Notes: generated from the letters alone by a model not told the origin. A DNA stretch of 64,000 nt from Candidatus Nomurabacteria bacterium RIFCSPLOWO2_01_FULL_41_18 (GCA_001785865.1 MFUZ01000003.1:15048-79047); one strand, 5' to 3'. Numbered from the stretch's first letter, positions 37,362 through 64,000 are shown. Translations and numbers: made by a program.

Positions 37362-39287
37362 ATGGCGCGAACATGGATAGTATGTATAACGGTTGTTTCT
37401 ATTTTTTTATTTCCTCTATTATATATAGGAGGATTTTCTTTCCCGGCGATTTTTCCCCACGCTATGTTTATATTTTTTATATCAGAGCTATTGCTTTTAC
37501 TCTTTTTGTGGGGCGGAATACGCAAACAACAATTGGTTTTCAAAAAAAGTCTTCTTACTGCGGGGCTTTTGGCATACATTGTCGTTTTATTTATTTCCGC
37601 GCTCGCGGGCGCTGATTTCTTGCAGTCGTTTTGGTCAAGCTATAGTCGGATGACTGGCTTGGTCACCTGGGTTCATTATTTTATTTTGTTTTTCGTTCTC
37701 TCGTCGGTTTTAGAACGGCAGGACTGGAAATATGTTTTTCGGGCGTTGATTCTTTCCGCAATTGTGCTTGCGATAGGGTCTTTTCTAGGACCGACTGGTT
37801 TCAATATCGGATGGAAACCGATTGCAGGGGCAGGATCGTTACTAGGAAACAGTAGCTACAGCGGTATCTATTATGTACTGGTGTTTTTTATGTCTGTTGT
37901 CGGATTTGCATTGGAAGACAGAAGAAAATGGAAATATATATACGGATTCGGCTGGCTAATAATATTCATTAGTCCTGATCTGTTTAATTTTCAATTTTTC
38001 ACGGGAGCGATATCTTTCTCTGAAATTTTCGGAAACCCCTTTTTGCTTCTTGGGTATGCGCGGGCGTCAACTGTGGCATTGTGGACGGGGATTGTCTTAC
38101 TGGGGATTTTGTATGGCATCCATACTATATCTAAAGTTTTTATCCAGAAGATGCTTTTGGGGATTGTGTTTGTTTGTCTTAGTGGAGGGTATGTGTTCGG
38201 CTTCTTGTCTATCATCAACAAGCAGGGAATTGTCTATGAAAAATATATAGAGGAGGAGGGCGAACATATTCGGTCAAGTGTGTGGAATATTGCCTTACAG
38301 AGCATAAAGGAACGTCCATGGTTTGGCTACGGGCTGGAGAACTTTGAGCATACATATCAAAAACATTTAAACGCAAGCATGATTGAGAATAAAAATGATT
38401 TGCGGATGGTTACGCTTAGAGAGACTTTATGGTTTGATATGGTGCATAATACAACACTGGAATCGCTAGTTTATAACGGTGTTATTGGTACGCTTACAAA
38501 AATATTGCTTTTGGGAATAGTTCTTTTTCTGTGTATGCGCCGGTATTTTCAAAAGAGAGAATTTTATTTCCTAGTTGTACCTTTCGTTTTTATTTTGCAT
38601 TTACTCCAGACACAGACATCGTTTGAGACAGACAGCGGGTTACTGCTCTTGTTTTTATTGCTTGCCTTTCTAGTCTCGCGCGAAGAAAAGATCATTGCCT
38701 TGTCGCTTCCCGGAAACAGGTGGTGGTACAGAGTTGGGGCTGTGGCATTGTTTATGGTTACGTTGTATAGCTTTATATTTGTTCCAATTCGTGAGAATAA
38801 GACATTGGCAAATATACAAAGTGCGGCATATGTTGATAAAAGAATTCCTCTATATAAAGATTTGTACTCTTTACGTATGTCTCCCGAAAAGAGTTTGCGG
38901 ATTTTATCCGGTAAATACACGGCTGGTATTGTTACCAAATATGAAGACATTTTACAGTATCAACAGTCGGACAATGTCCGCAAGGAATTGAATATATATC
39001 TTGACTTGTATGAACACTATTTACCACGTTATGAGAATAGTTACAGGTATTTGATTGACTATGCAAATGTCATACACATCGCGTATCTTTTTGGTATTAA
39101 TGAAACAGAGAAGGGTGAAACGCTGTCGCGTCGAGCACTTTCTATCTCACAGTCATATCCTCATGCGTACTGGTTTCTCGCGTTTAATATGTATCGTCAA
39201 GAAAGGTTTGACGAAGCAAAAGAGTATATGCAAGCGGCGCAAACAATTGATCCATCAATAAAATCTGACTTTCTGTATAAAAATTAA
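37362..39287 (+). CDS. O-antigen ligase / Wzy_C-family polytopic membrane protein with a C-terminal TPR-like domain (WaaL/PglL-like)
   Basis: 10+ TM helices and a periplasmic loop with RPWFGYGLENFEH, typical of Wzy_C. Soluble C-terminal ~200 aa with helical repeats. Start could be 37326. Confidence 0.6.
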   Translation: MARTWIVCITVVSIFLFPLLYIGGFSFPAIFPHAMFIFFISELLLLLFLWGGIRKQQLVFKKSLLTAGLLAYIVVLFISALAGADFLQSFWSSYSRMTGLVTWVHYFILFFVLSSVLERQDWKYVFRALILSAIVLAIGSFLGPTGFNIGWKPIAGAGSLLGNSSYSGIYYVLVFFMSVVGFALEDRRKWKYIYGFGWLIIFISPDLFNFQFFTGAISFSEIFGNPFLLLGYARASTVALWTGIVLLGILYGIHTISKVFIQKMLLGIVFVCLSGGYVFGFLSIINKQGIVYEKYIEEEGEHIRSSVWNIALQSIKERPWFGYGLENFEHTYQKHLNASMIENKNDLRMVTLRETLWFDMVHNTTLESLVYNGVIGTLTKILLLGIVLFLCMRRYFQKREFYFLVVPFVFILHLLQTQTSFETDSGLLLLFLLLAFLVSREEKIIALSLPGNRWWYRVGAVALFMVTLYSFIFVPIRENKTLANIQSAAYVDKRIPLYKDLYSLRMSPEKSLRILSGKYTAGIVTKYEDILQYQQSDNVRKELNIYLDLYEHYLPRYENSYRYLIDYANVIHIAYLFGINETEKGETLSRRALSISQSYPHAYWFLAFNMYRQERFDEAKEYMQAAQTIDPSIKSDFLYKN

Positions 39288-39308
39288 TATGATACAATAC
39301 ACAGCATT

Positions 39309-40220
39309 ATGAAATGTTTAGTAACAGGTGGGGCGGGGTTTATCGGCTCGCATTTAGTGGATCGTTTATTCCAAGAAGGTCATGAGGTATATGTCGTTGA
39401 TAACCTTTCTACCGGGAAACGAGAGAACATTAACAAAAATGCACGCTTTCTTGAAGGAGACATAACAAATTTCGACGAACTTCAAAAGATATTTACTGAA
39501 ACAAAGCCAGAATATGTGTTCCACGAGGCCGCTATTCCACGTATGCCTGTTTCTATCGAAGACCCCGTCGGTACATCAAAAGTAAATATCTTAGGCACAA
39601 TTAATGTGCTGAAAGCTGCGGTGGATGCTGGAGTTAAAAAAGTTATCTTCGCTTCTTCTTCTTCGGTTTATGGCGACCAGAAGACCTTGCCCCTAAAAGA
39701 AGATATGTCACCAAACCCCATGAGTCCGTATGGTTTACAAAAATATACTGGAGAACTCAACCTTCGTCTGTTTTCGTCTCTCTATGGTTTGCCCACTGTT
39801 GCTCTGCGTTACTTTAATGTGTATGGACCAAGAGCTGATATCAATTCCGATTATAGTTTAGTTGTAGGCAAGTTTTTAAGGTTGAATAAAGAAATGAAGC
39901 CGCTTACGATATTTGGGGATGGAAAGCAATCCAGAGCTTTTTGCTATGTAGAGGACGTAGTGGAAGCAAATATAAGAGCCATGAATTCTGCTCGCGTGGG
40001 AACCGGAGAGGTAATTAATATTGGGGCTAGAATTCCAGTTTCTGTGGAACAAATTGCCGAAGCCATAGGCGGAAAAAAAGAATATCTACCACCTAGAACT
40101 GGAGATCCTATGCATACAGCTGCTGATCTCTCCCGTGCAACAGAACTTTTAGAATGGGAGCCTAAAGTAAGTTTTCAAGAAGGTCTTAAGAAAACAAAGG
40201 CATGGTTTGATAGACAGTAA
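39309..40220 (+). CDS. NAD-dependent nucleotide-sugar epimerase/dehydratase (GalE-like SDR)
   Basis: MKCLVTGGAGFIGSHLVDRL, and a YxxxK-containing catalytic region (SPYGLQKYTGE). Confidence 0.8.
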   Translation: MKCLVTGGAGFIGSHLVDRLFQEGHEVYVVDNLSTGKRENINKNARFLEGDITNFDELQKIFTETKPEYVFHEAAIPRMPVSIEDPVGTSKVNILGTINVLKAAVDAGVKKVIFASSSSVYGDQKTLPLKEDMSPNPMSPYGLQKYTGELNLRLFSSLYGLPTVALRYFNVYGPRADINSDYSLVVGKFLRLNKEMKPLTIFGDGKQSRAFCYVEDVVEANIRAMNSARVGTGEVINIGARIPVSVEQIAEAIGGKKEYLPPRTGDPMHTAADLSRATELLEWEPKVSFQEGLKKTKAWFDRQ

Positions 40221-40244
40221 CAAGTAATACATGGCTGACATAAA

Positions 40245-41171: not shown

Positions 41172-42416
41172 CTAAATTCTTTGAAAGAAAAAAAATATCA
41201 TTGCCGATCTTACCACTTCTGTAATAAGTATTGTCCCTACGACTCCCCAAATGCCGAAAAAGGGCGTTAGTAGAAGAAGGAGAATAATCCTAAAAATAGA
41301 GGATCCTACCCTAATGACATAAAGGTCCTTTTTTCTTAAGTCGCTTACAAGCGCGGTTTCCAAAAGTTGGAAAGGAATCATTATTCCAATAATTGATAAT
41401 GCTTGCAGATAGATTATCGACTCTAGATAGTTCGGAAAGAATATTTTATAGATAAAAGGTATAATTGCAATATTAGCAATGACGAATGGTACTGATAGAA
41501 AAAATAAAGAAAAGAATTTATTCAGCAGTCCTTTTTTGATATCTTTTACATTTTTCTCACCAATTTTTGGGAGCGCGAGTGCTTGTATTGGTAAATAATT
41601 GTTTAATGCTTTTATGGGAAAGTAGCTGAAAGAATATACAGCGACCTGAATAGGACCGAGGAAGTGCCATAGAATTACTGTATCAAAATTTTTCCCAATT
41701 TTAGCGATTGCATCCATTATTGTCATATCTTTGCCAAATTTTATTGCACTGCCATCCTGTTCGTTGTTTTTCAGTTGTCTGATGGTTTTATATAATAAGA
41801 ATCCTTCGAAAACCGCATGGGCGACAAGGGTTGTAAAAATAACCCAGAAGACGCTGTTGGTGAAGTAGATAACAGGAAAAAGCGCTAGTAGTATTAAGAG
41901 TGCAGGCCCGAATTTATATAAGCTCTCTTTGGCAAACTTTTTTTTAGCATTCCAAAAAACCCTAGCAAGAGGAAATGTGGTCCAGAAAGGCAGGAAAATA
42001 GCGGCAACAAAAAAACTGCTCGCCAGTTCCATATTTTGGTGCGCGAGGTACCAACCAGCCGCTGTAGTAAGACCGAGTGAACCAACTAAAGACCACTTCA
42101 TTTTTTTCTTAATAACAGTGATGAGCGCGCCCTCGCTATTACGAGCAATGCTTCTAATAAGCGTTGTATTTAACCCAGACAAAGCGAAAATGCTTGCAAT
42201 ATCAATTCCAGCAAGCACGAATTGATATGTACCATACATTTCTTTAGGGAACCAACGCGCGAATGCCATCATTGTTACAAATGAAATAGTAAGCACTCCA
42301 ATTCTGCCAAGAATAATCCAGAAACTTCCTCCGGCAACGTAAACCATATCCGTTTTTGTATAACGTTCCGACCAGCGGAGCAATTGCAATATTTTGTTCC
42401 GTAATAATAATTGCAT
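41172..42416 (-). CDS. polysaccharide flippase (Wzx-like, MOP superfamily)
   Basis: 414 aa with ~12 TM helices. Polysacc_synt-like N-terminal region (LLRWSERYTKTDMVYVAGGSFWIILGRIGVLT). Confidence 0.6.
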   Translation of the reverse strand: MQLLLRNKILQLLRWSERYTKTDMVYVAGGSFWIILGRIGVLTISFVTMMAFARWFPKEMYGTYQFVLAGIDIASIFALSGLNTTLIRSIARNSEGALITVIKKKMKWSLVGSLGLTTAAGWYLAHQNMELASSFFVAAIFLPFWTTFPLARVFWNAKKKFAKESLYKFGPALLILLALFPVIYFTNSVFWVIFTTLVAHAVFEGFLLYKTIRQLKNNEQDGSAIKFGKDMTIMDAIAKIGKNFDTVILWHFLGPIQVAVYSFSYFPIKALNNYLPIQALALPKIGEKNVKDIKKGLLNKFFSLFFLSVPFVIANIAIIPFIYKIFFPNYLESIIYLQALSIIGIMIPFQLLETALVSDLRKKDLYVIRVGSSIFRIILLLLLTPFFGIWGVVGTILITEVVRSAMIFFFFQRI

Positions 42417-43397: not shown

Positions 43398-44937
43398 AAA
43401 TACAGGTATGGTAAAAAATACTTCTTTAATAGATTTATTAAAAAAAGGAAGCATTTCATTGTGGGGATATCACGACAAATGTCTTCCCGATTTATTGTTA
43501 GAAAATCATAATGTTTGCATTCACACACGCGACAAACCCTCTACAATTTCACGGGAACAATCAGAAGTTTGTTTTTTAGACAGGGAAATAATTAAAGCGC
43601 TACTGGTGGCATTTCCCCAAAATTCTCGATATATTCTTGTGCGTCTTGCATTCAGAACCTCGTGGCTTATAGGATTTTTTGGGATTATTCGCTGGCTCGC
43701 CCAAAAACAATTTATTTTTAGAGGAATACTACCTTTGCGATCAAGAAAGTCTTGGCAGTTTTGGGTGGTTCTCGAGCGCAGAAAACAAAAAAAAGTGGTC
43801 CAACAGTCCAATTTGTCGGCAGAAATCGGAGTGCAGGGTTTGTTGGACTTTCTGCGAAAAGAAGATATAAATTATGTTGTTTTGCGCTCTTTTGATAAAT
43901 TGCCGAAACTTGCTAGAGAGGGCGGTGATCTTGATATTCTTGTAGCAGACAAAGATGAATTACGAGTGAGAGAATTTTTAAATTTGAATCAGGGTAATAT
44001 TCCTATAGATATATATTCGGTTTCCGGTTTGTCTGCAGGTGGCCTTCCTTATTACCCCCCTCCTCTCGCCAGAAAAATTTTAGAAAGCGCAGTCGAAGGT
44101 CCTGCAGGATCGCGCGTGCCGGCTTTAAGGGAGGCATTTTTAAGTTTTGCCTATCATGTGCTCTATCATAAGGGTTCCCTCACCGAACACAGACATATGG
44201 AAAATCTTTTATTAATGGCCCAAAAGATGGATATTTTTATGGATATTACACTGGAGAACTTAGAGGAGTATCTTGCCGGCCAAGGATGGCGACCGAAACG
44301 CGACACGCTTGCCAAAATTGCTGTGATGAATGAATGGGTTTGGAAAAGATTCTTAGCCGATTCTTCCCCGAAAAACGAGATTGGCCTGGGGGTTTTTATA
44401 CTGAAGGGTGGGGCGGTAAGGCTGGGCTTTGCTAGCGCCGTGGTAAAAGCTATTGAAAGGGATGGTTTTGCCATAATTCATAAAATTCAATTTAATGATA
44501 AGCAAAAACATTACGCCGCAGATCATTTAAGAGGCGGGAACTGGATTTATCAGTCATCGATTTCGCCGGAGGATTATCTACCCGCTATGGCAATTGTTGT
44601 GCTTGATCGCAATCCCATAAAATGGATTAATGAGCAAGCGCTCGGCCAAGTCCCTGCTGGCCGGATGCACGCATTAAAGCTGAAACTGCGGAAAGAGTTT
44701 GATTTAAGCGGACAAAAAAGCTTTATTCATGGCACCGACAATACAACCGAAGCATGGGAATACATAGAAATTTGTTTTCCGGGAGAGTTAGCTCTTATCG
44801 AAAAGAAAATGGAAAATTTCAAACAAAAAAATGGTTTCAATTTTTTAAAAAAAATGCATCTATATTTACGTCTATCGCCTTATTTATTACGGCATGGTTT
44901 GAAAAGATTTATTATTAAGCGTATTATAGAGCGATGA
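43390..44937 (+). CDS. multidomain hypothetical protein with a C-terminal nucleoside-diphosphate-kinase-like domain and a possible minimal nucleotidyltransferase motif
   Basis: C-terminal: GVFILKGGAVRLGFASAVVKAIERDGFAII...KHYAADHL, then AIVVLDRNPIKWIN, then FIHGTDNTTEAWEYIEICF. These parallel the NDK motifs ERTFIIKP.AV..G....I..R.E..GF...HY...; the Kpn loop; and N.IHGSDS.E.A.REI..WF. Mid-region: REGGDLDILVADKDE. Confidence 0.5.
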   Translation: MNKNTGMVKNTSLIDLLKKGSISLWGYHDKCLPDLLLENHNVCIHTRDKPSTISREQSEVCFLDREIIKALLVAFPQNSRYILVRLAFRTSWLIGFFGIIRWLAQKQFIFRGILPLRSRKSWQFWVVLERRKQKKVVQQSNLSAEIGVQGLLDFLRKEDINYVVLRSFDKLPKLAREGGDLDILVADKDELRVREFLNLNQGNIPIDIYSVSGLSAGGLPYYPPPLARKILESAVEGPAGSRVPALREAFLSFAYHVLYHKGSLTEHRHMENLLLMAQKMDIFMDITLENLEEYLAGQGWRPKRDTLAKIAVMNEWVWKRFLADSSPKNEIGLGVFILKGGAVRLGFASAVVKAIERDGFAIIHKIQFNDKQKHYAADHLRGGNWIYQSSISPEDYLPAMAIVVLDRNPIKWINEQALGQVPAGRMHALKLKLRKEFDLSGQKSFIHGTDNTTEAWEYIEICFPGELALIEKKMENFKQKNGFNFLKKMHLYLRLSPYLLRHGLKRFIIKRIIER

Positions 44938-51606: not shown

Positions 51607-52037
51607 CGAAGGCCCCAAAATGGGCGACTCTCTGCCTTGTCTTTAAATCCGCATTTTTCTATATAAAATCTGCGCGCTCCCTCTCTTCTCGTTGAAAGGT
51701 CAACACACCTTGCTCCTCTTTCTTGGGCATCTTTTAACATTTGTTCTGTAAGTTTTTTTCCGACTCCTTTGCCTCGCGCAGATTCATCAACCACAACATC
51801 CTCGATAGTCCATACTTCTCCCCCCAGTTTTTCATAAGAAGCAAGCTCCGATGTGCCAACTATTTCTCCGCCTATCGTTGCAATATACATACTTACGTTT
51901 GGGCTATTTACCACTCTTTGGAATTTTTCAAATTCTAGAGGCGGTATTTCGGGGTAGAGTTGTGTCAGCAGATTGCGGATTGCATTATATGTTTTTTCAT
52001 CTACTGCTTTTACTTTTTCTATACGTACCCTATTCAT
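51594..52037 (-). CDS. GNAT-family N-acetyltransferase
   Basis: Acetyl-CoA binding motif ARGKGVGKKLTEQMLKDAQERGA. Confidence 0.75.
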   Translation of the reverse strand: MNRVRIEKVKAVDEKTYNAIRNLLTQLYPEIPPLEFEKFQRVVNSPNVSMYIATIGGEIVGTSELASYEKLGGEVWTIEDVVVDESARGKGVGKKLTEQMLKDAQERGARCVDLSTRREGARRFYIEKCGFKDKAESRPFWGLRYTL

Positions 52038-53080: not shown

Positions 53081-53087
53081 TTCAAAA

Positions 53088-55306: not shown

Positions 55307-56427
55307 AAATTATTCATGTTATTACAGGTCTTAATGTCGGTGGGGCTGAAATGATGCTGTATAAGATCTTGCAACATTCCTCCGGCAAAGAATTTCTACA
55401 TGAAGTGATATCTCTCACAGATGTCGGTTTAGTTGGTGAGAAGATACAAAAGCTTGGTGTACCCGTGCGCGCTCTTAATATGAAAGAAATTGATTTACCA
55501 ATTACGGTTATTCGTCTTGCGCTCTGGCTCCGAAAGAGTAATCCTGATGTTGTGCAGACTTGGATGTATCATGCAAACCTTGTTGGCGGACTCGCGGCGA
55601 CGCTCTGTTTTAAGAAAATACCAGTTGTGTGGGGGATAAGACAAAGTGATCTTAATCCAAAACTGAATAAGCGGAGGACTATATTGGTCGCACAAGTTGG
55701 AGCTTTTCTTTCTCGCTTTATTCCTGGGAATATTATTATAAATTCAATACGAGGTAAAAAAAATCACGAAGCTTTGGGATATGAAGCAAGTAAAATGGTT
55801 GTAATTCCAAACGGTTTTGATTTAAAAGTGTTCCGTCCCGACACAGAAGCGAGAATTTTGTTTCGTCAAAAGATAGGAATTTCTCCAACGTCTTTTATTA
55901 TTGGATCTGTCGCGCGGTTCGATCCATCAAAAGATCAAAAAACTCTCATCCAGTCGGCTAAAATTTTGCTCAACGGATACAAGGATCTGCATTTTGTTTT
56001 GTGCGGTAGGGGAATGACTGATAAAAATAAGCTGCTCACAGAATGGATTAACGAAATAGATATAGCTCCCCGGTTACACCTTTTAGGTGAGTGTGAGGGC
56101 ATAGAAAATATTACCGCTGCTTTTGATGTTGCCGTGCTTTCTTCGGTTTCAGAAGGATTCCCGAATGTGATAGGAGAGGCGATGGCTTGTGGCGTTCCTT
56201 GTGTTGTAACCGACGCAGGGGATTCTGCCTATATTGTCGGAGATACTGGTTTGATGGTGCCGCCTAGTGATCAGGTGGCTTTAGCTAATGCCTTTCGGCA
56301 GATGATTGAGATGAAAGATATAGAACGTAAGGCGCTCGGGGAACGAGCGAGGAAGCGTATAGAGGAAAATTTTTCTATTGATCTGGTTGTTAAAAAATAC
56401 ATAGAATTGTATACTAGTTTGGCATGA
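55303..56427 (+). CDS. glycosyltransferase family 4
   Basis: N-terminal GGAEMML, and C-terminal EGFPNVIGEAMACGVPCVVTDAGDS. Confidence 0.75.
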   Translation: MKIIHVITGLNVGGAEMMLYKILQHSSGKEFLHEVISLTDVGLVGEKIQKLGVPVRALNMKEIDLPITVIRLALWLRKSNPDVVQTWMYHANLVGGLAATLCFKKIPVVWGIRQSDLNPKLNKRRTILVAQVGAFLSRFIPGNIIINSIRGKKNHEALGYEASKMVVIPNGFDLKVFRPDTEARILFRQKIGISPTSFIIGSVARFDPSKDQKTLIQSAKILLNGYKDLHFVLCGRGMTDKNKLLTEWINEIDIAPRLHLLGECEGIENITAAFDVAVLSSVSEGFPNVIGEAMACGVPCVVTDAGDSAYIVGDTGLMVPPSDQVALANAFRQMIEMKDIERKALGERARKRIEENFSIDLVVKKYIELYTSLA

Positions 56428-57872
56428 ATATTTTTATAGGACTTCTTTTTATTTTAGGTCTTTCAGGTGTCTTGGGAGCGATTATGTGGAAGCTCGGTAT
56501 GCGCGATAGGCGAGCGTATATTTTATTTGGAATTTCTTTATTGATACATATTCTCGCGGTTCTTTTTATTTATGCATTTGACTTTCAACCTTTTAGTGGA
56601 GGCGGGGGAGATTATGGTAGCTATCACAAAACCGCTGTGCTCATTACCGACGAAATCGGACAAGGGAATCTTTTGCCAGACATAGAAATAAGAGGGGTTC
56701 CCCACCACTTTCCCACTATTATTGGGTATGTTTATTTTTTCACTGTCCCCTCTATGGTGGTCGGGCAACTTTTCAATGCATTTGTTGCATCAGTGGGGAT
56801 TATGCTCTTATATTTTATAGTACTTGAATTCTCACAATCGTTTCGGTGGGCGTTTGGTATTGGGCTCTTGGCAAATCTGTATCCCAGCTTTTTATTTTAC
56901 TCCAGCTTGCTCCTGAAAGATGTTTTTGTAGTTTTATTTGCGCTGGTGGGAGCGTTTCTAATGCTTCGTATTTTGAAACGTTTCTCTTGGGGATTATTTG
57001 CATTGTTTTATATATCCCTAATAGCACTGACTCACTTCCGTTTCTATGTGGGGATTGTTCTTTTGATGGCCTTTTCTATTTCTTGGTTTTTGCTTTCGAG
57101 CAAACCGATCAAAGCGCGTTTTGCTTATGGGCTTGGGATGATCTTTCTGCTCGGTTTTATTCCACAGATGTTTGGAATGGGATACTATGGATTTTCAACA
57201 CTTCGGCATTATACAAATCCAGATACCCTTACTTATTACCAGGATATTGCTTATACAGGCAAAGATGTTGCTTCGCCCTCATCCGTCCCACCTGCCCCTG
57301 ATGTTGTCTCTCCGCCTCCACCTGCCCCATCTACGCCTGTTGATGTTACTCCTTCATCATCTGCCCCACCCACGCCTATTGTTGATCCCGTACCTCCTCC
57401 CACCCCATCTACACCTTTTGGTGAGCTTTTAGAAGAGTCTTCATCTTCAGGAGAAAATAGTGGTTTTACTTCTACGGTTGATTTAAAAGTTAGTTTCGGA
57501 AGCCCTATGGCATTTATTACCACCTTCCCTAAATCTTTTGCTTTTGTGGCAATTGGTCCGTTTCCTTGGCAGTTCACTGCAGATAGACATTACCTCGCTC
57601 TCTTAGAAACAATTCCATGGACTATTCTAAGTGTTTTGGCGTTGTTAGGTATCATACATACATTACGATCTCGACACAGAGTATTGTCACTTGCGATATT
57701 TAGTTTCGGGCTTTTCCTTATCCTTACCATTTATATAAATAATTTTGGCATTACAACACGCATTCGCATGCCGGCGTTTTTCTTGTTGCTTGCCTTTGTT
57801 CCGTTTGGGGTTGTTGAATATCAACGTTGGAAATATTATATTTATAATTTTCTGTATGGAAACAAAAAGTAA
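56424..57872 (+). CDS. polytopic membrane protein with a Pro/Ser/Thr-rich loop; possible GT-C-fold glycosyltransferase or polymerase
   Basis: ~11 TM helices. An acidic first loop (DFQPFSGGGGDYGSYH). A PAPDVVSPPPPAPSTPVDVTPSSSAPPTPIVDPVPPPTPSTP linker. Family not firmly recognised. Confidence 0.35.
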   Translation: MNIFIGLLFILGLSGVLGAIMWKLGMRDRRAYILFGISLLIHILAVLFIYAFDFQPFSGGGGDYGSYHKTAVLITDEIGQGNLLPDIEIRGVPHHFPTIIGYVYFFTVPSMVVGQLFNAFVASVGIMLLYFIVLEFSQSFRWAFGIGLLANLYPSFLFYSSLLLKDVFVVLFALVGAFLMLRILKRFSWGLFALFYISLIALTHFRFYVGIVLLMAFSISWFLLSSKPIKARFAYGLGMIFLLGFIPQMFGMGYYGFSTLRHYTNPDTLTYYQDIAYTGKDVASPSSVPPAPDVVSPPPPAPSTPVDVTPSSSAPPTPIVDPVPPPTPSTPFGELLEESSSSGENSGFTSTVDLKVSFGSPMAFITTFPKSFAFVAIGPFPWQFTADRHYLALLETIPWTILSVLALLGIIHTLRSRHRVLSLAIFSFGLFLILTIYINNFGITTRIRMPAFFLLLAFVPFGVVEYQRWKYYIYNFLYGNKK

Positions 57873-58743
57873 TAAACTACCACTTATTGTTCTGGCGACA
57901 TATTGGAACGAAAGTCGTTTTGTTCAGCCTTCGTTAGCACAAATTGAGGAATTGAATCCGGTTGAGGTTATTATTTGTGATGGGGCATTTAATCCGAAAA
58001 TCCTTGACCATTCAACAGATGGCACTAGAGAAATTCTTGAGAACTTTATTGAAACACATAAAAATGCGCGCGTTGTTTCTCCTATTCGCCCAGGGATTCT
58101 AAAATCAGCTTGGCTATTACTTCTTGGACATAAACATCTTCCATGGTGGACAATATTTAGATTTGCTAGGTGGAAATTTCTCATTGTGTCAATGATAAGG
58201 ACACCATATCAGCGCAATGAGGGGTTAAATTTTCAACACATGATAAGTTTGTCTAAGGAATGGAAGCCGGGTGCATGGTTTATGACGTGTGACTCGGATC
58301 AATTCTTTAGCGATGAGATGATGGAAAAGATAAAGAAAATTATAAGCGATGGACAATTTGATTTAGACTTGATAACGGGGAACGAGATGACCTTTTTTAG
58401 AGACTTTAAGCATTATGTAAATTCTTATGAGAAGCGCATTTTTAATAATATGCCCCACCGTATCTATAGTGACACCAACATTCAGCCCCAGAGAAGTGTG
58501 ATAAGGGAAACTAGGTCCGGGAGTTTGATGAATCCACGCGATATCTTGGCAAAGCATTTGTATGTACGTTTTGGTAAACAATTGCATGCTGGAACATATT
58601 TTCACTATAAACTCAATTCAAGAGAGCGTCATGACTTGGGCTATAAAATTGGAGACCGCAAAAAACCGAATCCGCAAGATTACCCAGAGCTGGATTTTAT
58701 TGGCGAACACCCACGTGTCATAATAGAGCATTTTAAGCTATGA
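57856..58743 (+). CDS. glycosyltransferase family 2-like hypothetical protein
   Basis: LIVLATYWNESRFVQPSLAQI...VIICDGAF...DGTREIL resembles the GT2 N-terminal half. The ATG at 57856 overlaps the upstream gene by 17 nt. Confidence 0.35.
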   Translation: METKSNKLPLIVLATYWNESRFVQPSLAQIEELNPVEVIICDGAFNPKILDHSTDGTREILENFIETHKNARVVSPIRPGILKSAWLLLLGHKHLPWWTIFRFARWKFLIVSMIRTPYQRNEGLNFQHMISLSKEWKPGAWFMTCDSDQFFSDEMMEKIKKIISDGQFDLDLITGNEMTFFRDFKHYVNSYEKRIFNNMPHRIYSDTNIQPQRSVIRETRSGSLMNPRDILAKHLYVRFGKQLHAGTYFHYKLNSRERHDLGYKIGDRKKPNPQDYPELDFIGEHPRVIIEHFKL

Positions 58744-59561
58744 AAACTTCACTTGTGTCAGTTGTTCTGCCAACCCGCAATCGCTTAAAAACGTTGCGTG
58801 ATGCGTTGGATAGTGTGCTTAATCAATCGTATTCTGATTTAGAAGTAATCTTGGTTGATGATTATTCAGACCAGGAAACCAAAGTTGGAATTGAGGAAAT
58901 AGTGCGAAAAGATTCACGCGTTAGAATTATAAGAAATGAAGAGAATATTGGATTTGTCCGTTCTTTAAATAAGGGTATCAGAGAATCAAGGGGAGAATAT
59001 ATTGCGAGGATTGATGACGATGACGCTTGGATGGATAAAGCAAAATTACTAAAACAAGTAGTGTTTTTAGACAAACACCCTCTGTATGCAGTTGTTGGCG
59101 GTGGCATTGTTCGAGTTGACGGTGATGGCAAAGAGATATCTCGGCAGCTTTTTCCTGAAACCGATGAGGCCATCAGAGGTATAATGCTTATTACAGATCC
59201 CATTGTACATGTCGCGGTTGTTTTTAGGAAAAAAGATTGGGAAAGTGTTGGGGGCTATGATGAAGAATTTGATTACTCACAAGATTGGGAACTATGGATG
59301 AAATTTGGCAAGCGCGGAAAGTATTATAACTTCCCAGAATATTTTGTGCGGTCTATTTTTTCAAAGGAAGGGCGCTCTAGTAAAAATATGCGTCACCACC
59401 TTTGGTTGGCTATAGTTGCAAGAAAGAGGTATAAAAATGAGTTTCCAAATTTTTTGAAGGGGTATATACTCGGCTGGTTATCATACTTATTTTCTTTTAT
59501 TTCCATCAGATATCGCGTTAGTTTCATCCTTACTAAAATAAAGAGGCTGTTTTTAAAATAA
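58740..59561 (+). CDS. glycosyltransferase family 2
   Basis: VSVVLPTRNRLKTLRDALDSVLNQSYSDLEVILVDDYSDQET ... IARIDDDD (DxD). Confidence 0.8.
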   Translation: MKTSLVSVVLPTRNRLKTLRDALDSVLNQSYSDLEVILVDDYSDQETKVGIEEIVRKDSRVRIIRNEENIGFVRSLNKGIRESRGEYIARIDDDDAWMDKAKLLKQVVFLDKHPLYAVVGGGIVRVDGDGKEISRQLFPETDEAIRGIMLITDPIVHVAVVFRKKDWESVGGYDEEFDYSQDWELWMKFGKRGKYYNFPEYFVRSIFSKEGRSSKNMRHHLWLAIVARKRYKNEFPNFLKGYILGWLSYLFSFISIRYRVSFILTKIKRLFLK

Positions 59562-59568: not shown

Positions 59569-60384
59569 ATGAGAAAAATCATTAAGATAATAAGTTATTT
59601 GAGATATCTCCCAGTAATCATTTTTAAAATTAAAAATTGGCCAATTTTTTTATTGAATTATGCCCATCTTCGAAATACAGCCGCCGAATATATTTTCAGA
59701 AACGGTCTTAGAATAAAAACTTTTGACTCTGTTAGTGCTACTACTATAGCCGTAATTTTTATCAAAAGAGATTACGGTGGCATCCCTAATGATTCTGTTA
59801 TAATAGATGTCGGAGCGAATATAGGAGTTTTTTCAATATTTTCTGCTGGTAAAGGCAATGTTGTTTACAGCTACGAACCGATGCCAGACAATTTTCACTT
59901 ATTAGAAGAAAATATAAAGCTTAATAAACTAGAAAACAGAGTTTTTGCTTTTAATCTTGGAGTGGCGGCTAAGCGAGAGAAAAGAAAACTATATCTAGGC
60001 AAGTCGCCTTTTCACTCGTTTCTACCAGTGGGGAGTTCACCATTTAATGTTTTACATAATGACAGAGAAGGCGTAAGTAAACAAAGTTTTTTAGAAGTTG
60101 ATTGTATCTCTTTAAAAGATATTTTTGATGAAAATCAAATAAGTGAGTGCGATATTCTAAAAATAGATTGCGAAGGCGCAGAATACGAGATTTTATATAA
60201 TCTACCGGACATTTATTTTAAAAGAATTAAAGAAATTAGAATGGAGTATCATAATCACTTAAATCAATATAAGAATAATGGAGAGTATTTAAAAAGTTTT
60301 CTGATAAATAGGGGTTTTTCTGTTGAGAAATTAAAAAAGGGATCACCTTACCAGGGTGATGTTTGGTTTAAAAAAGTAGATTAA
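59569..60384 (+). CDS. FkbM-family methyltransferase
   Basis: IIDVGANIGVFSIFSA, and LKIDCEGAEYEIL. Confidence 0.65.
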   Translation: MRKIIKIISYLRYLPVIIFKIKNWPIFLLNYAHLRNTAAEYIFRNGLRIKTFDSVSATTIAVIFIKRDYGGIPNDSVIIDVGANIGVFSIFSAGKGNVVYSYEPMPDNFHLLEENIKLNKLENRVFAFNLGVAAKREKRKLYLGKSPFHSFLPVGSSPFNVLHNDREGVSKQSFLEVDCISLKDIFDENQISECDILKIDCEGAEYEILYNLPDIYFKRIKEIRMEYHNHLNQYKNNGEYLKSFLINRGFSVEKLKKGSPYQGDVWFKKVD

Positions 60385-60389: not shown

Positions 60390-61562
60390 ATGCAGACAAA
60401 ATCCCAGACCAAAGTATGCCATATTGCAACTGTCGACATAGCCCTTAGATTTTTACTGCTTAATCAGCTACTTTTTCTAAAAAATAAGGGTTATGATATT
60501 TCGGCTGTTTGTTCGCCCGGACCATGGGTCTCCGAGATTGAACGATCAGGGATTAGAGTAAAACAAATTTCTATGACGCGCCGTATTACTCCATTGCGAG
60601 ATTTTACAGCTCTTGTGCGGCTTATACAATATTTTCGCGAACAAAAACCTGATGTGGTGCATACTCATACACCGAAGGCTGGATTTTTAGGTACGCTGGC
60701 GGCTAGGTTGGCTCGTATACCTATCATCATTCACACCAATCATGGCTTTTATTTTCATGAAAATTCTTCTTGGTTACACAAGCAGATTTTTATGTGGATG
60801 GAGTGCATTATAGCTTCCAATGCGCATTTAGTTTTCTCCGTGAATAAAGAAGACATAGTTGTGGCGGGAGAGAAGCATATTGCAGGTCCTAATAAAATGA
60901 AATATTTTGGCGGGTGGGTTAATATTGATAAGTACAATCCGAACCGTTTTTCTAAGGAATTTGTAATTAGTAAAAAGAAGGAGTTGGGGATTCCTGATGG
61001 AGTTCCCGTAGTTGGGATTGTAGCTAGACTAGTTAGGGAGAAAGGATACTTTGATCTTTTTGAAGCAATGAGGACGGTCGTTCTTAAATTCCCCAGCGCA
61101 TTACTTGTTTCTGTTGGGTTTACTGAACCAGAAAAAAAGGATGGATTTCAACCTGAGATTGCAAGTAAATACGGAATAGAAAACAACACTCTTTTTTTGG
61201 GGAAAAGAACAGATGTTGATGAAATTCTTCCAGTAATGGATGTTTTTACTCTTCCTTCGTGGAGAGAGGGAATTGGTACCTCTATTTTAGAAGCCTCGGC
61301 AATGGAATTGCCGGTTGTTGTTACAAATGTTCGTGGATGCCGTGAGGCAGTGGATGATGGGATAACCGGTAAACTTGTTCCGCATAAAAACGGAGATATG
61401 CTGGGAGAGGCACTTATCTCTATGCTAGAGCATCCTAAAGAGGCAAAGTTTATGGGCAAGGCCGGTAGACTAAAAATGGAAAAAGAGTTTGATGAGCGTA
61501 TTGTATTTGAGCGATTAGATAGAGAATATAAGAGATTGATTCAAACTAAACTTAAAAAATGA
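60390..61562 (+). CDS. glycosyltransferase family 4
   Basis: REGIGTSILEASAMELPVVVTNVRGCREAVDDGITG. Confidence 0.75.
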   Translation: MQTKSQTKVCHIATVDIALRFLLLNQLLFLKNKGYDISAVCSPGPWVSEIERSGIRVKQISMTRRITPLRDFTALVRLIQYFREQKPDVVHTHTPKAGFLGTLAARLARIPIIIHTNHGFYFHENSSWLHKQIFMWMECIIASNAHLVFSVNKEDIVVAGEKHIAGPNKMKYFGGWVNIDKYNPNRFSKEFVISKKKELGIPDGVPVVGIVARLVREKGYFDLFEAMRTVVLKFPSALLVSVGFTEPEKKDGFQPEIASKYGIENNTLFLGKRTDVDEILPVMDVFTLPSWREGIGTSILEASAMELPVVVTNVRGCREAVDDGITGKLVPHKNGDMLGEALISMLEHPKEAKFMGKAGRLKMEKEFDERIVFERLDREYKRLIQTKLKK

Positions 61563-62143
61563 TGTATTTTATCGTAAAACGAATAATGGATATTACAATA
61601 AGCGCTCTCGCTCTTCTTTTGCTTGCTCCATTACTGTTTGTCATTGCTTTATTTATAAAAATGGATTCGCCAGGACCGGTATTTTTTGCGCAGTCGCGTG
61701 TTGGGTACAAAAAGAAGATTTTTAAGATTCTTAAGTTTCGCACGATGGCTAAAGATGCGGATAAGGTTGATATAGCTGTTCAACAAGTGAGAGATTGGGA
61801 GATCAATAGCAATGATCCAAGAGTTACACGGGTTGGGAAATGGTTGCGCAAGACGGGGGTGGACGAGATTCCACAGTTTTTTAATGTTTTGAAAGGAGAT
61901 ATGAGTTTGGTTGGCCCAAGACCGTATTATCAGCCTCGAATAGACGCCGATCCAAACCTAGAAGAGCGACTTTCCATAACACCAGGGTGTATTTCTTTGG
62001 CGATTGTGAGTGGAAGAGTACGCCTTTCTGAGGAAGAAATAAAAAAATATGACAGGGAATACCAAAACAAAAGAGGTTTATGGTTGGATATTAAAATTTT
62101 ACTTAAGGCTGTATATTTGGTAATATCAGGAAAGGGATTTTAA
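61559..62143 (+). CDS. undecaprenyl-phosphate sugar phosphotransferase (small bacterial sugar transferase, PglC/WbaP C-terminal type)
   Basis: N-terminal TM helix, PGPVFFAQSRVG, KFRTM, DEIPQFFNVLKGDMSLVGPRP. Confidence 0.85.
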   Translation: MMYFIVKRIMDITISALALLLLAPLLFVIALFIKMDSPGPVFFAQSRVGYKKKIFKILKFRTMAKDADKVDIAVQQVRDWEINSNDPRVTRVGKWLRKTGVDEIPQFFNVLKGDMSLVGPRPYYQPRIDADPNLEERLSITPGCISLAIVSGRVRLSEEEIKKYDREYQNKRGLWLDIKILLKAVYLVISGKGF

Positions 62144-62146
62144 ACT

Positions 62147-62533: not shown

Positions 62534-62541
62534 ATAAATTT

Positions 62542-63675
62542 ATGACTTGGAAAATTCCCTTATTTAAATTGCATTCGGATAGCAAAGACATCAATGCTGT
62601 TTCCCGAATCATCAAAAGTGGTATGAATTGGGCAACTGGAGATGATATTGTTTTTTTTGAGCGGGAGCTTGCAGCATATGCGGGTGTAAAATACGCCGTC
62701 TCTTTCAGTTCCGGCACCGCGGCTCTACATGCACTTTTGCTTGCGCTTCACATCGGCAAGGGAGACGAAGTTATCGTGCCTTCATTTACCTTTATTTCCA
62801 CCGCAAATGCGGTTCTTTTTGTGGGAGCCACGCCGGTCTTTGCTGAGATTGAGCGCGAGACTTTTGGACTTGATTATAAAGATGTGGAACGAAAAATTAC
62901 TAAAAAAACCAAAGCTATCATTCCTGTTCACATCGGAGGGCTTGCTTGCAAGATAGAAGAGTTGAAGCGGGTGGCGGAAAAACATAAATTGTTGCTTATC
63001 GAAGATGCCGCTGAATCCCTTGGAGCAACCATCAAGGGGAAAAAAGTTGGTTCTTTCGGATGTGCGGGGATGATTAGTCTGTGCGGTCCAAAAGTTATCA
63101 GCACCGGCGAGGGTGGTGCTATTGTCACCGATTCCCGAGATATTTATGAACAATTAAGACTTCTTCGCTCTCACGGCCGAGCCGATACCAAGGATTATTT
63201 TAAAACCACTGAATATCTGGATTATATTCAGCTCGGGTATAATTTCCGACTTTCAAATATTCTTGCCGCATTGGGGCGCACTCAGCTCAAAAAGATTGAG
63301 AAATTGATTACCGCTCGCAGAAAAAATTCGGCTTATTTATCACAGCAACTAAAAAATATTCATGAAATTTCTGTGCCGACGGAACCCAAAAACAACCGCC
63401 ACATTTTTCAAATGTATATCGTGCGTGTGGGGGGAGGAAAAAATAAGCGAGATGCTCTGCAAAAACACCTAAATGAAAAAGGCATCATGGCAAAGGTGTA
63501 TTTTCCGCCAGTGCATCTATCTCAATTTTACAAATCGAAAGGATTCAAAAAAGGGCATCTTCCCGAAACCGAAGCGATATCGAATGAGGTTCTTACTTTG
63601 CCCATGTTTCCAACACTCACGAAACATGAAATGGATTTTATGGCAAAGGAGATAAAAGCATTTTTCCATGAATAA
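62542..63675 (+). CDS. DegT/DnrJ/EryC1/StrS-family PLP-dependent sugar aminotransferase (PglE-like)
   Basis: GDEVIVPSFTFISTANAV, and LGYNFRLSNILAALG. Confidence 0.8.
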   Translation: MTWKIPLFKLHSDSKDINAVSRIIKSGMNWATGDDIVFFERELAAYAGVKYAVSFSSGTAALHALLLALHIGKGDEVIVPSFTFISTANAVLFVGATPVFAEIERETFGLDYKDVERKITKKTKAIIPVHIGGLACKIEELKRVAEKHKLLLIEDAAESLGATIKGKKVGSFGCAGMISLCGPKVISTGEGGAIVTDSRDIYEQLRLLRSHGRADTKDYFKTTEYLDYIQLGYNFRLSNILAALGRTQLKKIEKLITARRKNSAYLSQQLKNIHEISVPTEPKNNRHIFQMYIVRVGGGKNKRDALQKHLNEKGIMAKVYFPPVHLSQFYKSKGFKKGHLPETEAISNEVLTLPMFPTLTKHEMDFMAKEIKAFFHE

Positions 63676-64000
63676 ACTCATATCTTTTGTAAAACAGCAT
63701 AAAGTGTCTGTAACATTCTTTGCCGACCTTGGACTTGTTGCGCTTGCGACATATATGGCATTTTTGATTCGTTTTGATGGTGTCATTCCAAGAGCTCGGT
63801 ACGATGGATTTCTCTGGTTTATGGCCTCCGCGCTGATCATAACACCGATTGTGTTTGTTTTTTTTAGATTGTATCGTTTCCCCTATTCTTTTATTAGTTT
63901 GACCGACCTTCCTTCTATTGGGAAGGGAGTCCTTTTTTCTGTGTTTATTCTTGGTACCGGGCTCTTTCTTTTTCGCGACGCGCCACCATTTGAGGAATTT
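63668..64000 (+). CDS. polysaccharide biosynthesis protein CapD/PglF/WbpM-like (UDP-sugar 4,6-dehydratase), 5' partial
   Basis: Open frame to the window end. MNKLISFVKQHKVSVTFFADLGLVALATYMAFLIRFDG... is the typical membrane N-terminus of PglF/CapD. The ATG overlaps the upstream stop (ATGAATAA). Confidence 0.6.
   Translation, partial: MNKLISFVKQHKVSVTFFADLGLVALATYMAFLIRFDGVIPRARYDGFLWFMASALIITPIVFVFFRLYRFPYSFISLTDLPSIGKGVLFSVFILGTGLFLFRDAPPFEEF

Follow-up and report, generated by a model that had tools for sequence, protein, structure and literature searches.

A large, methyltransferase-rich gene cluster for a cell-surface glycan in Candidatus Nomurabacteria: a variant of familiar pathways rather than a copy of the bacillosamine (pgl) system

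Among the closest described systems are the S-layer protein O-glycosylation (slg) clusters of Paenibacillus alvei (WsfB) and Geobacillus stearothermophilus (WsaB/WsaA/WsaE/WsaP) (PMC2943079). Their hosts lack an outer membrane, a phosphoglycosyl transferase (PGT) acts as initiator, the glycan is the target of methyltransferase activity, and assembly on a lipid carrier precedes transfer by a protein that has a Wzy_C domain, with a TPR motif at its C-terminus or in a neighbouring gene (PMC2943079). The Nomurabacteria locus, as we read it, is similar in each of these respects, but differs in its export by Wzx instead of a Wzm/Wzt ABC transporter, in having seven separate methyltransferases instead of one methyltransferase capping domain, in its additional GT-C and NTase+NDK-like proteins, in the absence of rml genes from the locus, and in the candidate acceptor, a PG_binding_1-domain protein. 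With the pgl systems of Neisseria and Campylobacter (PglB/C/D with PglL; PglF/E/D/C with PglB) the locus has in common a small PglC-type PGT architecture, a flippase and a transferase of the Wzy_C (PglL) family; it is much larger, however, and contains seven methyltransferases. The general protein O-glycosylation cluster of Tannerella forsythia encodes Wzx, several glycosyltransferases and methyltransferases, and the glycan, of about ten partly O-methylated sugars, is carried by the S-layer and other surface proteins. T. forsythia differs from the present host in being a diderm of the Bacteroidota with fewer methyltransferases and with Pse/Leg sugar pathways.

The host is an uncultured, ultra-small groundwater bacterium of the CPR (Parcubacteria). 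The cluster of ∼29 kb, for a heavily methylated cell-surface sugar chain, is a genuine, contiguous glycan-assembly locus that extends 2.4 kb beyond the window (the whole 64,000-nucleotide stretch of DNA analysed), to ∼66416, where the last gene codes for an S-adenosylhomocysteine (AdoHcy) hydrolase. Family assignments with Pfam and NCBIfam HMMs cover 29 genes (Table 1), and the Pfam E-values are far beyond chance. A sequence-only reading had proposed a large glycan locus, and the HMMs largely bear out its inventory, including the flippase (Polysacc_synt), the pyruvyl transferase (PS_pyruv_trans), the GNAT acetyltransferase and a second epimerase/aminotransferase pair (SDR2 and DegT1); the five positions that it gave (37362, 61559, 62147, 62542 and 63668) are all true gene starts. 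Of the glycosyltransferases it counted, five of type GT4 become four by Pfam, and three to four of type GT2 become three, two of which are weak matches. The GT-C membrane protein, the NTase+NDK-like protein, the UDP-sugar dehydrogenase-like protein and the 3' extension were absent from its list. Overlaps of 4–17 nt between many neighbouring genes indicate that the genes from 52082 on form one operon.

Table 1. Features of the locus and its flank. Positions are counted from the first nucleotide of the window.
Feature	Position	Strand	Evidence
Secreted surface protein, 683 aa, candidate glycan acceptor	35128..37179	+	PF01471 4.3e-13
Wzy_C-family (WaaL/PglL-like) membrane protein, 641 aa	37362..39287	+	PF04932 48 bits, TPR_2 21.7 bits
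SDR1, GalE/TviC-like NDP-sugar 4-epimerase	39309..40220	+	PF01370 233 bits
UDP-sugar dehydrogenase-like, short, 279 aa	40332..41171	+	PF00984, PF03721
Wzx-type flippase (Polysacc_synt)	41172..42416	-	PF01943 55.7 bits
FkbM-type methyltransferase 1	42462 (or 42447)..43397	+	PF05050 5e-14
NTase+NDK-like protein, 509 aa, three-domain	43408..44937	+	motifs GGDLD, IHGTD
TylF-type O-methyltransferase	44934..45710	+	PF05711 1.2e-52, 179 bits
GT2-like glycosyltransferase, weak match	45718..46518	+	PF00535 35.5 bits
FkbM-type methyltransferase 2	46546..47466	+	PF05050 6e-18
FkbM-type methyltransferase 3	47508..48275	+	PF05050 2.8e-16
Class I methyltransferase (Methyltransf_23)	48289..48879	-	PF13489 1.6e-10
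Polysaccharide pyruvyl transferase (PS_pyruv_trans)	48900..49829	-	PF04230 2.2e-19
Class I methyltransferase (Methyltransf_11)	49916..50569	+	PF08241 1.1e-21
GT4 glycosyltransferase a	50545..51606	+	PF00534 3.3e-31
GNAT acetyltransferase	51594..52037	-	PF00583 8.1e-18
SDR2, GalE/UDP-GlcA-epimerase-like	52082..53080	+	PF01370 162 bits
DegT aminotransferase 1 (DegT1)	53064..54194	+	PF01041 420 bits
GT4 glycosyltransferase b	54191..55306	+	PF00534 1.5e-40
GT4 glycosyltransferase c	55303..56427	+	PF00534 3.4e-28
Polytopic membrane protein, 482 aa, Pro-rich loop, probable GT-C (PMT_2-like)	56424..57872	+	Pfam matches of homologues
GT2-like protein, very weak match	57856..58743	+	PF00535 24.5 bits
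GT2 glycosyltransferase, EpsE/TuaG/PglI-like	58740..59561	+	PF00535 118 bits, NCBIfam matches
FkbM-type methyltransferase 4	59569..60384	+	PF05050 2.7e-19
GT4 glycosyltransferase d	60390..61562	+	PF00534 8.7e-32
Small monotopic PGT, 194 aa, PglC architecture	61559..62143	+	PF02397 (Bac_transf) 196 bits
Hexapeptide (left-handed beta-helix) acetyltransferase, 128 aa	62147..62533	+	PF00132
DegT aminotransferase 2 (DegT2)	62542..63675	+	PF01041 384 bits
SDR3, membrane-anchored, 493 aa in full	63668..64000 in window, ends at window-equivalent 65149	+	L003 11127-12608
AdoHcy hydrolase, outside window	∼65154-66416	n/a	L003 12613-13875

The Wzy_C-family protein with its TPR tail had been likened to O-oligosaccharyltransferases/ligases, and its architecture fits this description. 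The Wzy_C score compares with a Pfam cut-off of 31.7 bits, whereas the single TPR_2 match is sub-threshold (21.7 versus 27 bits); a Wzy_C domain combined with a C-terminal TPR is also described for the O-oligosaccharyltransferases WsfB and PglL (Ristl et al., PMC2943079). Thirteen transmembrane helices are predicted, with the N-terminus inside by positive-inside topology, which places the TPR-like C-terminal tail of ∼150 residues outside the cell in this prediction. The best structural match in the PDB of the AF2 model (pLDDT 77) is WaaL of Cupriavidus metallidurans (7TPG; E 3.8e-5, TM 0.61 on target, 16% sequence identity). Both proteins have a conserved Arg and His in external loops, and R96, R234, G322, G324 and the WFDxxHN motif with H362 are invariant in the Wzy_C protein; it differs from WaaL in the extra 13th helix and the external tail, and in a host without LPS. 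With WaaL as the closest solved structure and the Arg/His residues conserved, the protein could also be a ligase like WaaL itself, which would join the glycan, once flipped, neither to protein nor to further glycan but to an anchor of lipid or glycolipid in the cytoplasmic membrane, yielding a lipoglycan. We regard this as very improbable, since the tail suggests a protein partner, the locus has no genes for lipid-anchor synthesis and CPR bacteria, to our knowledge, have no lipid A-core. The reading as an LPS-type (O-antigen) locus is excluded because the organism belongs to the CPR.

Bona fide Wzy polymerases also fall within Pfam Wzy_C, and none of the other locus genes is an evident polymerase candidate. 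The Wzy_C protein could thus be the repeat-unit polymerase of a classical Wzx/Wzy cell-wall or capsule-like polysaccharide, with factors encoded elsewhere fixing the polymer to peptidoglycan or releasing it; the TPR tail would then be a scaffold for the export and assembly machinery. Consistent with this, a Wzx is present, Wzx (orthologues at 184–337 bits) and Wzy_C occur together repeatedly in related loci, and the locus has a pyruvyl transferase, an enzyme typical of secondary cell-wall polymers (CsaB). However, neither the locus, nor the remainder of the window, nor the examined part of the contig contains a gene for Wzz/PCP, a tyrosine kinase (BY-kinase) or an LCP ligase, an ABC exporter is likewise absent from the locus and the window, and a length of 641–780 residues with an external TPR tail is atypical for Wzy polymerases. 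In addition, relatives have two or three tandem Wzy_C paralogues beside a surface-protein gene, an arrangement that better fits transferases with different acceptors or donors. We consider a polymerase less likely than transfer onto protein, but the likeliest of the alternatives.

The most obvious candidate acceptor is the secreted protein encoded upstream of Wzy_C. Besides an N-terminal signal/anchor and a PG_binding_1 domain, it contains a Cys/Ser/Thr linker, a Gly7 hinge and a very acidic, Thr/Ser-rich region of ∼500 residues; with a pI of ∼4.05 and 20% Ser+Thr, its composition is S-layer-like. An apparent S-layer has been seen by cryo-EM in a related Parcubacterium, for which the authors point to PG-binding proteins (10.1101/2022.04.20.488981). 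The PG_binding_1 protein adjoins Wzy_C in three lineages (the orthologues in L007 and L024 lie directly upstream), the Wzy_C proteins of which are ∼44% identical. The upstream flank (TatD...FtsK) is wholly syntenic in L007, so that the adjacency may reflect plain genome collinearity and not functional linkage; the more distant Wzy_C-TPR loci L008 and L010 have no PG_binding_1 neighbour.

The 3' genes had been read as a classic bacillosamine-type set, which their details do not support. Their order, from the PGT through the acetyltransferase and the aminotransferase to the membrane SDR, does match that of Neisseria pglB-pglC-pglD. The PGT has PglC as its best PDB match (8E37, 2.4e-30), followed by WbaP (1.2e-29). 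PGTs specific for diNAcBac are marked by five aromatic-box residues, a GLLLP motif and a C-terminal extension (PMC10186338); unlike those of the pgl systems, the locus PGT has none of the five residues, no GLLLP and no such extension. The acetyltransferase reaches 71 bits with the NeuD/PglD model TIGR03570 (cut-off 160.8) and covers positions 117–202 only, i.e. the beta-helix half; the N-domain of PglD/NeuD is absent, and PglD stands low in the ranking of its PDB matches. DegT2 is 45% identical to DegT1, and its gene overlaps that of SDR3. The latter consists of an N-terminal transmembrane domain of ∼170 residues and a GalE/Cj1427-like SDR domain (PF01370 Epimerase 169 bits versus Polysacc_synt_2 63 bits); its best PDB match is 6VO6 (1.2e-47), and the top matches are GalE and Cj1427, not PglF. 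Its motif STCSTYG...YGETK has T-C-S where dehydratases have T-D-E or T-D-K. Domain, matches and motif do not support a PglF/CapD-like dehydratase. We infer an amino-sugar module distinct from the canonical diNAcBac pathway.

Further sugar-nucleotide enzymes are encoded upstream. SDR1 (motif ASSSSVYG...YGLQK) scores 190 bits with the GalE and 178 bits with the TviC model of NCBIfam. The UDP-sugar dehydrogenase-like protein has the GGKCLPKD motif but not the C-terminal UDP-binding domain, and matches positions 73–299 of 413 in TIGR03026 (177.6 bits; cut-off 189.8). SDR2, the gene of which overlaps DegT1, has 4ZRM and 6ZL6 as best PDB matches and the motif TSSSMVYG, TDE or TSE being absent; DegT1 scores 320 bits with PseC and 308 bits with ArnB, each below its own cut-off. 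The 482-residue membrane protein itself has no match in Pfam and no sequence match in the PDB, but PMT_2 is matched by 35 and PMT by 16 of 50 aligned homologues, and it is probably a GT-C (PMT_2-like) glycosyltransferase. No clear polyprenyl-phosphate-sugar synthase for a GT-C step was identified.

The presence of both a GT-C and a Wzy_C protein raises the question of whether the island is a mosaic of at least two independent pathways, a Wzx/Wzy_C oligosaccharide next to a GT-C pathway that would place single, possibly amino, sugars on extracytoplasmic proteins or polymers, as Arn or Pmt systems do. Four of the genes are encoded on the opposite strand, and the dehydrogenase-like protein, SDR2, DegT1, GT2 and GT-C loosely parallel Ugd/ArnA/ArnB/ArnC/ArnT; yet SDR2 lacks the decarboxylase Glu, and the strong GT2 is EpsE/TuaG/PglI-like, not ArnC or GtrB. 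Moreover, homologues of the GT-C protein are fused to FkbM or GT4 in relatives, and its gene lies inside the operon of overlapping genes, which favours a single pathway and makes a mosaic improbable.

All seven methyltransferases of the earlier count (four FkbM/Methyltransf_21, one TylF and two class I) are backed by Pfam; they are divergent, SAM-dependent enzymes. Their density had been called unusual, and rightly so: 12 related loci have zero to three methyltransferase homologues. Between a degenerate Rossmann/methyltransferase-like N-domain and a basic C-terminal helix, the NTase+NDK-like protein has an NTase domain of the pol-beta type (GGDLD) and an NDK-like domain (IHGTD); some family members have a weak protein-kinase-like C-terminus. 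By functional analogy only, it may be compared with WbdD of E. coli O9a, a kinase and methyltransferase chain terminator: both would be multi-domain cytoplasmic proteins that combine a methyltransferase-like fold and a phosphotransfer-type domain with a membrane-binding helix at the C-terminus, and the gene is flanked by, and overlaps with, methyltransferase genes. Unlike in WbdD, the phosphotransfer domain is NDK-like (phospho-His type) and linked to an NTase domain, no SAM-binding motif is present in the N-domain, and the pathway is Wzx-dependent, not ABC-dependent.

Tentatively, and with somewhat less than even confidence, we propose that in this host without an outer membrane the product is a complex, heavily decorated, Wzx-dependent oligosaccharide, assembled on polyprenyl diphosphate and transferred to a surface protein by the Wzy_C protein. 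Homology shows the PGT to be the enzyme that loads the first sugar onto the lipid carrier. Four GT4 enzymes, together with two to three of type GT2, lengthen the chain to ∼7–8 sugars, the two DegT aminotransferases provide amino sugars, and the methyltransferases, the pyruvyl transferase, GNAT and the hexapeptide acetyltransferase add the decorations; the AdoHcy hydrolase can remove the by-product of methylation, and Wzx moves the product across the membrane. At the outer face, the GT-C enzyme may add at least one sugar from a polyprenyl-phosphate sugar, and the Wzy_C protein, with the Arg/His loop of the WaaL/PglL family, may transfer the glycan en bloc to a protein recruited by its TPR tail, i.e. 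S-layer-type O-glycosylation as proposed for P. alvei WsfB.

The genes from 37362 rightwards form a heavily methylated surface-glycan locus that contains an O-oligosaccharyltransferase (O-OTase)-like protein and lies in the genome of a host without LPS. Housekeeping genes (tRNA synthetases, RecO, S6/SSB/S18, EF-P, RecA and FtsK) take up the window's first 37 kb. Because the locus continues past the end of the window to the gene of S-adenosylhomocysteine (AdoHcy) hydrolase, its full extent is ~29 kb and 29 genes. The hydrolase gene follows the gene starting at 63668 and is itself followed by the genes of an AAA_28 protein and of the ribosomal proteins L10 and L12. Many neighbouring genes of the locus overlap by 4–17 nt. 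The composition profile showed no clear GC anomaly setting the island apart, and no RNA genes or elements were found with Rfam and ARAGORN. In the housekeeping part, an isoleucyl-tRNA-synthetase-like protein was observed in which, judged by Pfam, PF00300 (His_Phos_1) is apparently inserted between two tRNA-synt_1 segments.

Nearly all family assignments of the sequence-only reading were reproduced with Pfam and NCBIfam: the Wzy_C protein with a sub-threshold TPR_2 repeat, a Polysacc_synt flippase (Wzx; PF01943, 55.7 bits), a pyruvyl transferase, a GNAT protein, four FkbM, one TylF and two class I methyltransferases, two DegT aminotransferases, a Bac_transf phosphoglycosyl transferase (PGT) and a hexapeptide acetyltransferase. 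The HMMs yielded four rather than five GT4 enzymes, and three GT2 enzymes, two of them weak, where three to four had been counted. Three proteins were additional to that list: a 482-aa membrane protein, a 509-aa protein with nucleotidyltransferase and NDK-like domains (NTase+NDK-like protein), and a 279-aa UDP-sugar-dehydrogenase-like protein. The last of these keeps the GGKCLPKD cysteine motif and is missing the entire C-terminal UDP-binding domain; its gene ends exactly at the end of the convergent Wzx gene, and the protein may be either a remnant left by truncation or a short form in its own right.

Coordinates of the features discussed (window positions unless a related locus is named; SDR, epimerase-like short-chain dehydrogenase/reductase; L003 covers the end of the locus and its downstream flank).
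Feature	Position	Strand	Length (aa)	Remarks
Isoleucyl-tRNA-synthetase-like protein	12697-16227	+	1176	
295-aa protein	33733-34620	+	295	
Candidate acceptor protein	35128-37179		683	Directly upstream of Wzy_C gene; signal/anchor, PG_binding_1, Cys/Ser/Thr linker, Gly7 hinge
Wzy_C-TPR protein	37362-39287		641	
SDR1	39309-40220			
UDP-sugar-dehydrogenase-like protein	40332-41171	+	279	
Wzx flippase	41172-42416	-		
NTase+NDK-like protein	43408-44937	+	509	
SDR2 + DegT1	52082-54194			Overlapping pair; SDR2 52082-53080, DegT1 53064-54194
Polytopic membrane protein	56424-57872		482	
PGT	61559-62143		194	
Acetyltransferase	62147-62533		128	
DegT2 + SDR3	62542-64000			Overlapping pair, on to ~65149; DegT2 62542-63675
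SDR3	63668-65149		493	End is window-equivalent
AdoHcy hydrolase	~65154-66416			Window-equivalent
Second PG_binding_1 protein	L003 18524-20977		817	~5 kb downstream of locus, outside window
Tandem Wzy_C paralogues	L007 10001-16061			After PG_binding_1 gene
Tandem Wzy_C paralogues	L024 3008-6362			After PG_binding_1 gene

The Wzy_C match scored 48 bits (Pfam gathering cut-off 31.7), which places the protein in the superfamily of WaaL, PglL, PilO and some Wzy; it is polytopic, with 13 TM helices in the AlphaFold model (pLDDT 77). The sole significant PDB match to this model in Foldseek was WaaL (7TPG; E 3.8e-5, TM 0.61 on target), and the tail matched designed as well as natural TPR proteins. The Lys/Arg counts of the short loops favour an N-in topology, which with 13 TM helices would place the large conserved loop and the TPR tail after the 13th helix outside the membrane. 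The homologues found numbered only 13, all with the Wzy_C plus TPR architecture, and across them R96 (in a SFWSxxxRMxG loop), R234, W308, P319/G322/G324 and a WFDxxHN motif with H362 are invariant. A WaaL-like fold is thus predicted, with Arg and His conserved in loops on the extracytoplasmic side. O-OTases of the PglL/WsfB type pass a lipid-linked glycan to Ser/Thr (or Tyr) of a protein acceptor. The predicted S-layer O-OTases WsaB and WsfB carry Wzy_C; WsfB and PglL end in a TPR motif, and next to wsaB lies the gene of a TPR protein in its own right, WsaA (Ristl et al., PMC2943079). Since Wzy_C plus TPR is described there for WsfB, and TPR for PglL, the likeness to O-OTases proposed earlier is architecturally sound; on its predicted architecture the protein is O-OTase-like, and a candidate acceptor is encoded next door.

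A region of ~500 aa in this candidate acceptor has a pI of ~4.05 and 20% Ser+Thr, a composition suggestive of an S-layer-like protein. Cryo-EM of another Parcubacterium revealed an apparent S-layer, and the authors propose a contribution of PG-binding proteins to the envelope (10.1101/2022.04.20.488981). Two further lineages (loci L007 and L024), whose Wzy_C proteins are ~44% identical, share the gene order 295-aa protein, PG_binding_1 protein, Wzy_C. As the entire upstream flank is syntenic in L007, the adjacency of the PG_binding_1 and Wzy_C genes may reflect collinearity alone. In more distant Wzy_C-TPR loci SecA follows instead, and the genes 3' of Wzy_C differ from lineage to lineage, the usual picture where a variable surface-glycan island adjoins a conserved flank. 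A metagenome scan with the Wzy_C pair added only one locus.

Three further observations concern this region and its counterparts. The 295-aa protein has no Pfam match and is conserved upstream of PG_binding_1 and Wzy_C in L007 and L024 (67-149 bits). In both of these loci Wzy_C is present as a tandem array of two or three divergent paralogues, compared with one Wzy_C gene in the window. The second large PG_binding_1 protein, downstream of the locus, shows weak Kre9_KNH and faint Big_7 matches, and the NCBI record calls only an 86-aa fragment at this place.

An LPS-type locus, with the Wzy_C protein as a plain O-antigen polymerase, was ruled out because the contig belongs to a Candidatus Nomurabacteria bacterium (Parcubacteria, CPR) and the locus is surrounded by housekeeping genes. 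The 482-aa polytopic membrane protein has no Pfam match of its own; among 50 aligned homologues PMT_2 was matched in 35 (best 4.3e-9) and PMT in 16, and some homologues are fused to FkbM or GT4 domains. Searches of the PDB with the single protein, the 50-sequence profile and the homologue P0155 gave no sequence match. Its relatives make it a probable GT-C glycosyltransferase (PMT_2/GT39-GT83-like). The PGT together with another six to seven transferases would reasonably account for a single oligosaccharide of ~7–9 sugars. Besides Wzx, a Wzx/Wzy-dependent polysaccharide pathway would be expected to include a chain-length regulator or co-polymerase (Wzz/PCP, Wzc/CpsCD) and, for monoderms, LCP ligases; these, like a tyrosine kinase and an ABC exporter, were absent from the 29 genes of the locus, from the remaining window and from the flank downstream. 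In the model that we tentatively prefer, and that we rate as somewhat short of probable, a decorated oligosaccharide would be assembled in a Wzx-dependent manner and then moved by the Wzy_C-TPR protein onto a surface protein. In its main rival the same protein would act as the polymerase of a cell-wall polysaccharide, which we consider rather unlikely.

The sequence-only reading had been right in calling this a heavily methylated glycan locus with an O-OTase-like protein; its classic bacillosamine (diNAcBac) set, pglF/E/D/C, did not hold. The families and the order PGT, acetyltransferase, aminotransferase, membrane-anchored SDR were as described, and the order is presumably that of Neisseria pglB-pglC-pglD, but the diNAcBac-specific features were missing. 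A canonical diNAcBac module was ruled out on three of four specific tests (PGT signature, PglD domain and PglF-type SDR). The PGT is of the small monotopic type (PF02397, 196 bits, residues 7-189), with PglC as top PDB match (8E37, 2.4e-30) and the WbaP catalytic domain nearly equal (1.2e-29). UDP-diNAcBac PGTs are marked by an aromatic box (Y118, Y122, W150, F154, F197), a GLLLP loop and ~14 additional residues at the C-terminus (Anderson et al., PMC10186338). In the alignment with PglC, the box is absent from our protein (the positions read Arg, gap, Glu, Lys), the GLLLP loop is replaced by WEINS after a 9-residue insertion, and there is no C-terminal extension, the protein stopping short of the F197 region.

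The acetyltransferase scored 71 bits with TIGR03570 (NeuD/PglD; cut-off 160.8). With only model positions 117-202 matched and a length of 128 aa, it lacks the PglD N-domain, and hence the two-domain form of PglD/NeuD (nucleotide-sugar-binding N-domain plus left-handed beta-helix, ~195-200 aa); WxcM-like proteins, PerB and QdtC ranked far above PglD (3BSS/2VHE, ~26 bits) among its PDB matches. For DegT2, which occupies the PglE position, membership of the DegT/DnrJ/EryC1 family of PLP aminotransferases is clear (PF01041, 384 bits), and the score reached no equivalog threshold (PseC model, 305 bits, threshold 423.5).

SDR3 has a PglF-like N-terminal TM domain, and its catalytic domain scored 169 bits with PF01370 versus 63 bits with PF02719 (Polysacc_synt_2). 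Its best NCBIfam model is GalE and its best PDB match 6VO6 (1.2e-47), which we take to be Cj1427, a C4 dehydrogenase; PglF was absent among the 60 PDB matches listed (best 60 of 75 at E<=1e-10). The catalytic motif reads S-T-C-S-T-Y-G...Y-G-E-T-K, unlike that of PglF, a membrane-anchored UDP-GlcNAc 4,6-dehydratase of the Polysacc_synt_2 type with Thr-Asp-Lys. In general, 4,6-dehydratases carry T-D-E or T-D-K and decarboxylases T-S-E; none of the three SDRs of the locus has either signature, the corresponding motifs being ASSSSVYG in SDR1 and TSSSMVYG in SDR2. The best PDB matches of SDR2 were UDP-glucose and UDP-glucuronate 4-epimerases. From these motifs and the gene overlaps, each of the two aminotransferases is predicted to be translationally coupled to an epimerase-like SDR, with no recognisable keto-sugar-making enzyme in the locus. 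The keto sugar could come from a dehydratase encoded elsewhere in the genome, or the SDRs could act as Cj1427-like C4 oxidases. An Arn-like Ara4N branch was judged unlikely, since SDR2 has no Glu of the decarboxylase type and the GT2 resembles EpsE/TuaG. Overall, bacillosamine as the product is not supported, and for annotation the lesson is that a gene order resembling pglC-D-E-F does not here imply bacillosamine.

The methyltransferase density had been called unusual, and this was borne out by a comparison with 12 related loci, each anchored on a homologue of the Wzy_C-TPR or the NTase+NDK-like protein and annotated by phmmer with the window's proteins as queries. All seven methyltransferases of the locus lie within 18 kb, versus 0–3 homologues per stretch of up to 21.6 kb in the relatives, where the count is a minimum, since methyltransferases not homologous to the seven queries escape detection (as did a Methyltransf_3 gene in L010). 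The richness is at least twice that of any sampled relative. The four FkbM paralogues share only 25-31% mutual identity, which rules out a recent duplication as their origin; they are old paralogues whose specificities presumably differ. The AdoHcy hydrolase gene directly after the locus would suit a high flux of methylation, with recycling of the by-product of the seven methyltransferases, although in a small genome such adjacency could be coincidence.

The NTase+NDK-like protein gave a high-confidence model (pLDDT 89) with three domains. The N-domain is MTase-like and degenerate, the second is an NTase domain (GGDLD), and the third, NDK-like, retains in IHGTD the His that would be catalytic in the HG(S/T)D motif of an NDK. 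The C-terminal helix is basic, which suggests association with a membrane. The gene overlaps both of its neighbours, the FkbM gene on the 5' side and the TylF gene on the 3' side. Of 1.84 billion cluster representatives, 538 belong to the family at E<=1e-30, and the family (~540 aa) is unannotated; most members are nameless, and all named cases but one are called 'hypothetical protein'. Variants include GT2 or GT4 fusions and ~770-aa forms with a weak protein-kinase-like C-terminus. A search with an 8-sequence alignment gave 11 loci. Homologues are present in L010, L011 and L013-L023, and the family recurs beside Wzx and Wzy_C-TPR. The named records are mostly from Patescibacteria, with three of the 11 genome records labelled otherwise. 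These three, Chitinophagaceae (L015), Alphaproteobacteria (L020) and SAR116 (L022), represent either mis-binned contigs or a real spread beyond Patescibacteria. By analogy, we hypothesize that the protein phosphorylates or nucleotidylates a lipid-linked glycan, possibly in a WbdD-like capping step.

A broader reading joins four claims, and their conjunction is improbable. Wzx, a Wzy_C transferase with external TPR tail and the NTase+NDK-like enzyme may form a conserved surface-glycosylation core shared across Parcubacteria. Via a phospho-histidine, the NTase+NDK-like enzyme may cap the lipid-linked glycan with phosphate or a nucleotide-derived group, and may work with the flanking methyltransferases as a functional analogue of the WbdD terminator. 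The system may serve general protein O-glycosylation, in which an S-layer-like protein anchored to PG would be coated with an oligosaccharide that is pyruvylated and near-permethylated. Finally, this oligosaccharide may consist of 4-amino sugars made through dehydratase-independent coupling of SDR oxidases and aminotransferases.

CPR bacteria (Patescibacteria) make up a large share of bacterial diversity and live attached to other cells. To our knowledge there is essentially no experimental knowledge of their surface glycans, and a search of the literature on Patescibacteria O-antigen ligases and on glycosylation in CPR brought up no study of loci like this one. If the transferase is an O-OTase of relaxed specificity, it could serve glyco-engineering. 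The locus is noteworthy mainly for the scarcity of CPR glycobiology, its extreme methyltransferase load, its non-canonical amino-sugar module and its conserved, unannotated NTase+NDK-like partner. It offers a concrete, testable parts list for the CPR surface: a candidate O-OTase whose TPR tail would lie outside the membrane, a neighbouring gene for a candidate acceptor, unusually many and divergent methyltransferases together with an AdoHcy hydrolase, and an uncharacterised NTase+NDK-like family that travels with Wzx and Wzy_C.
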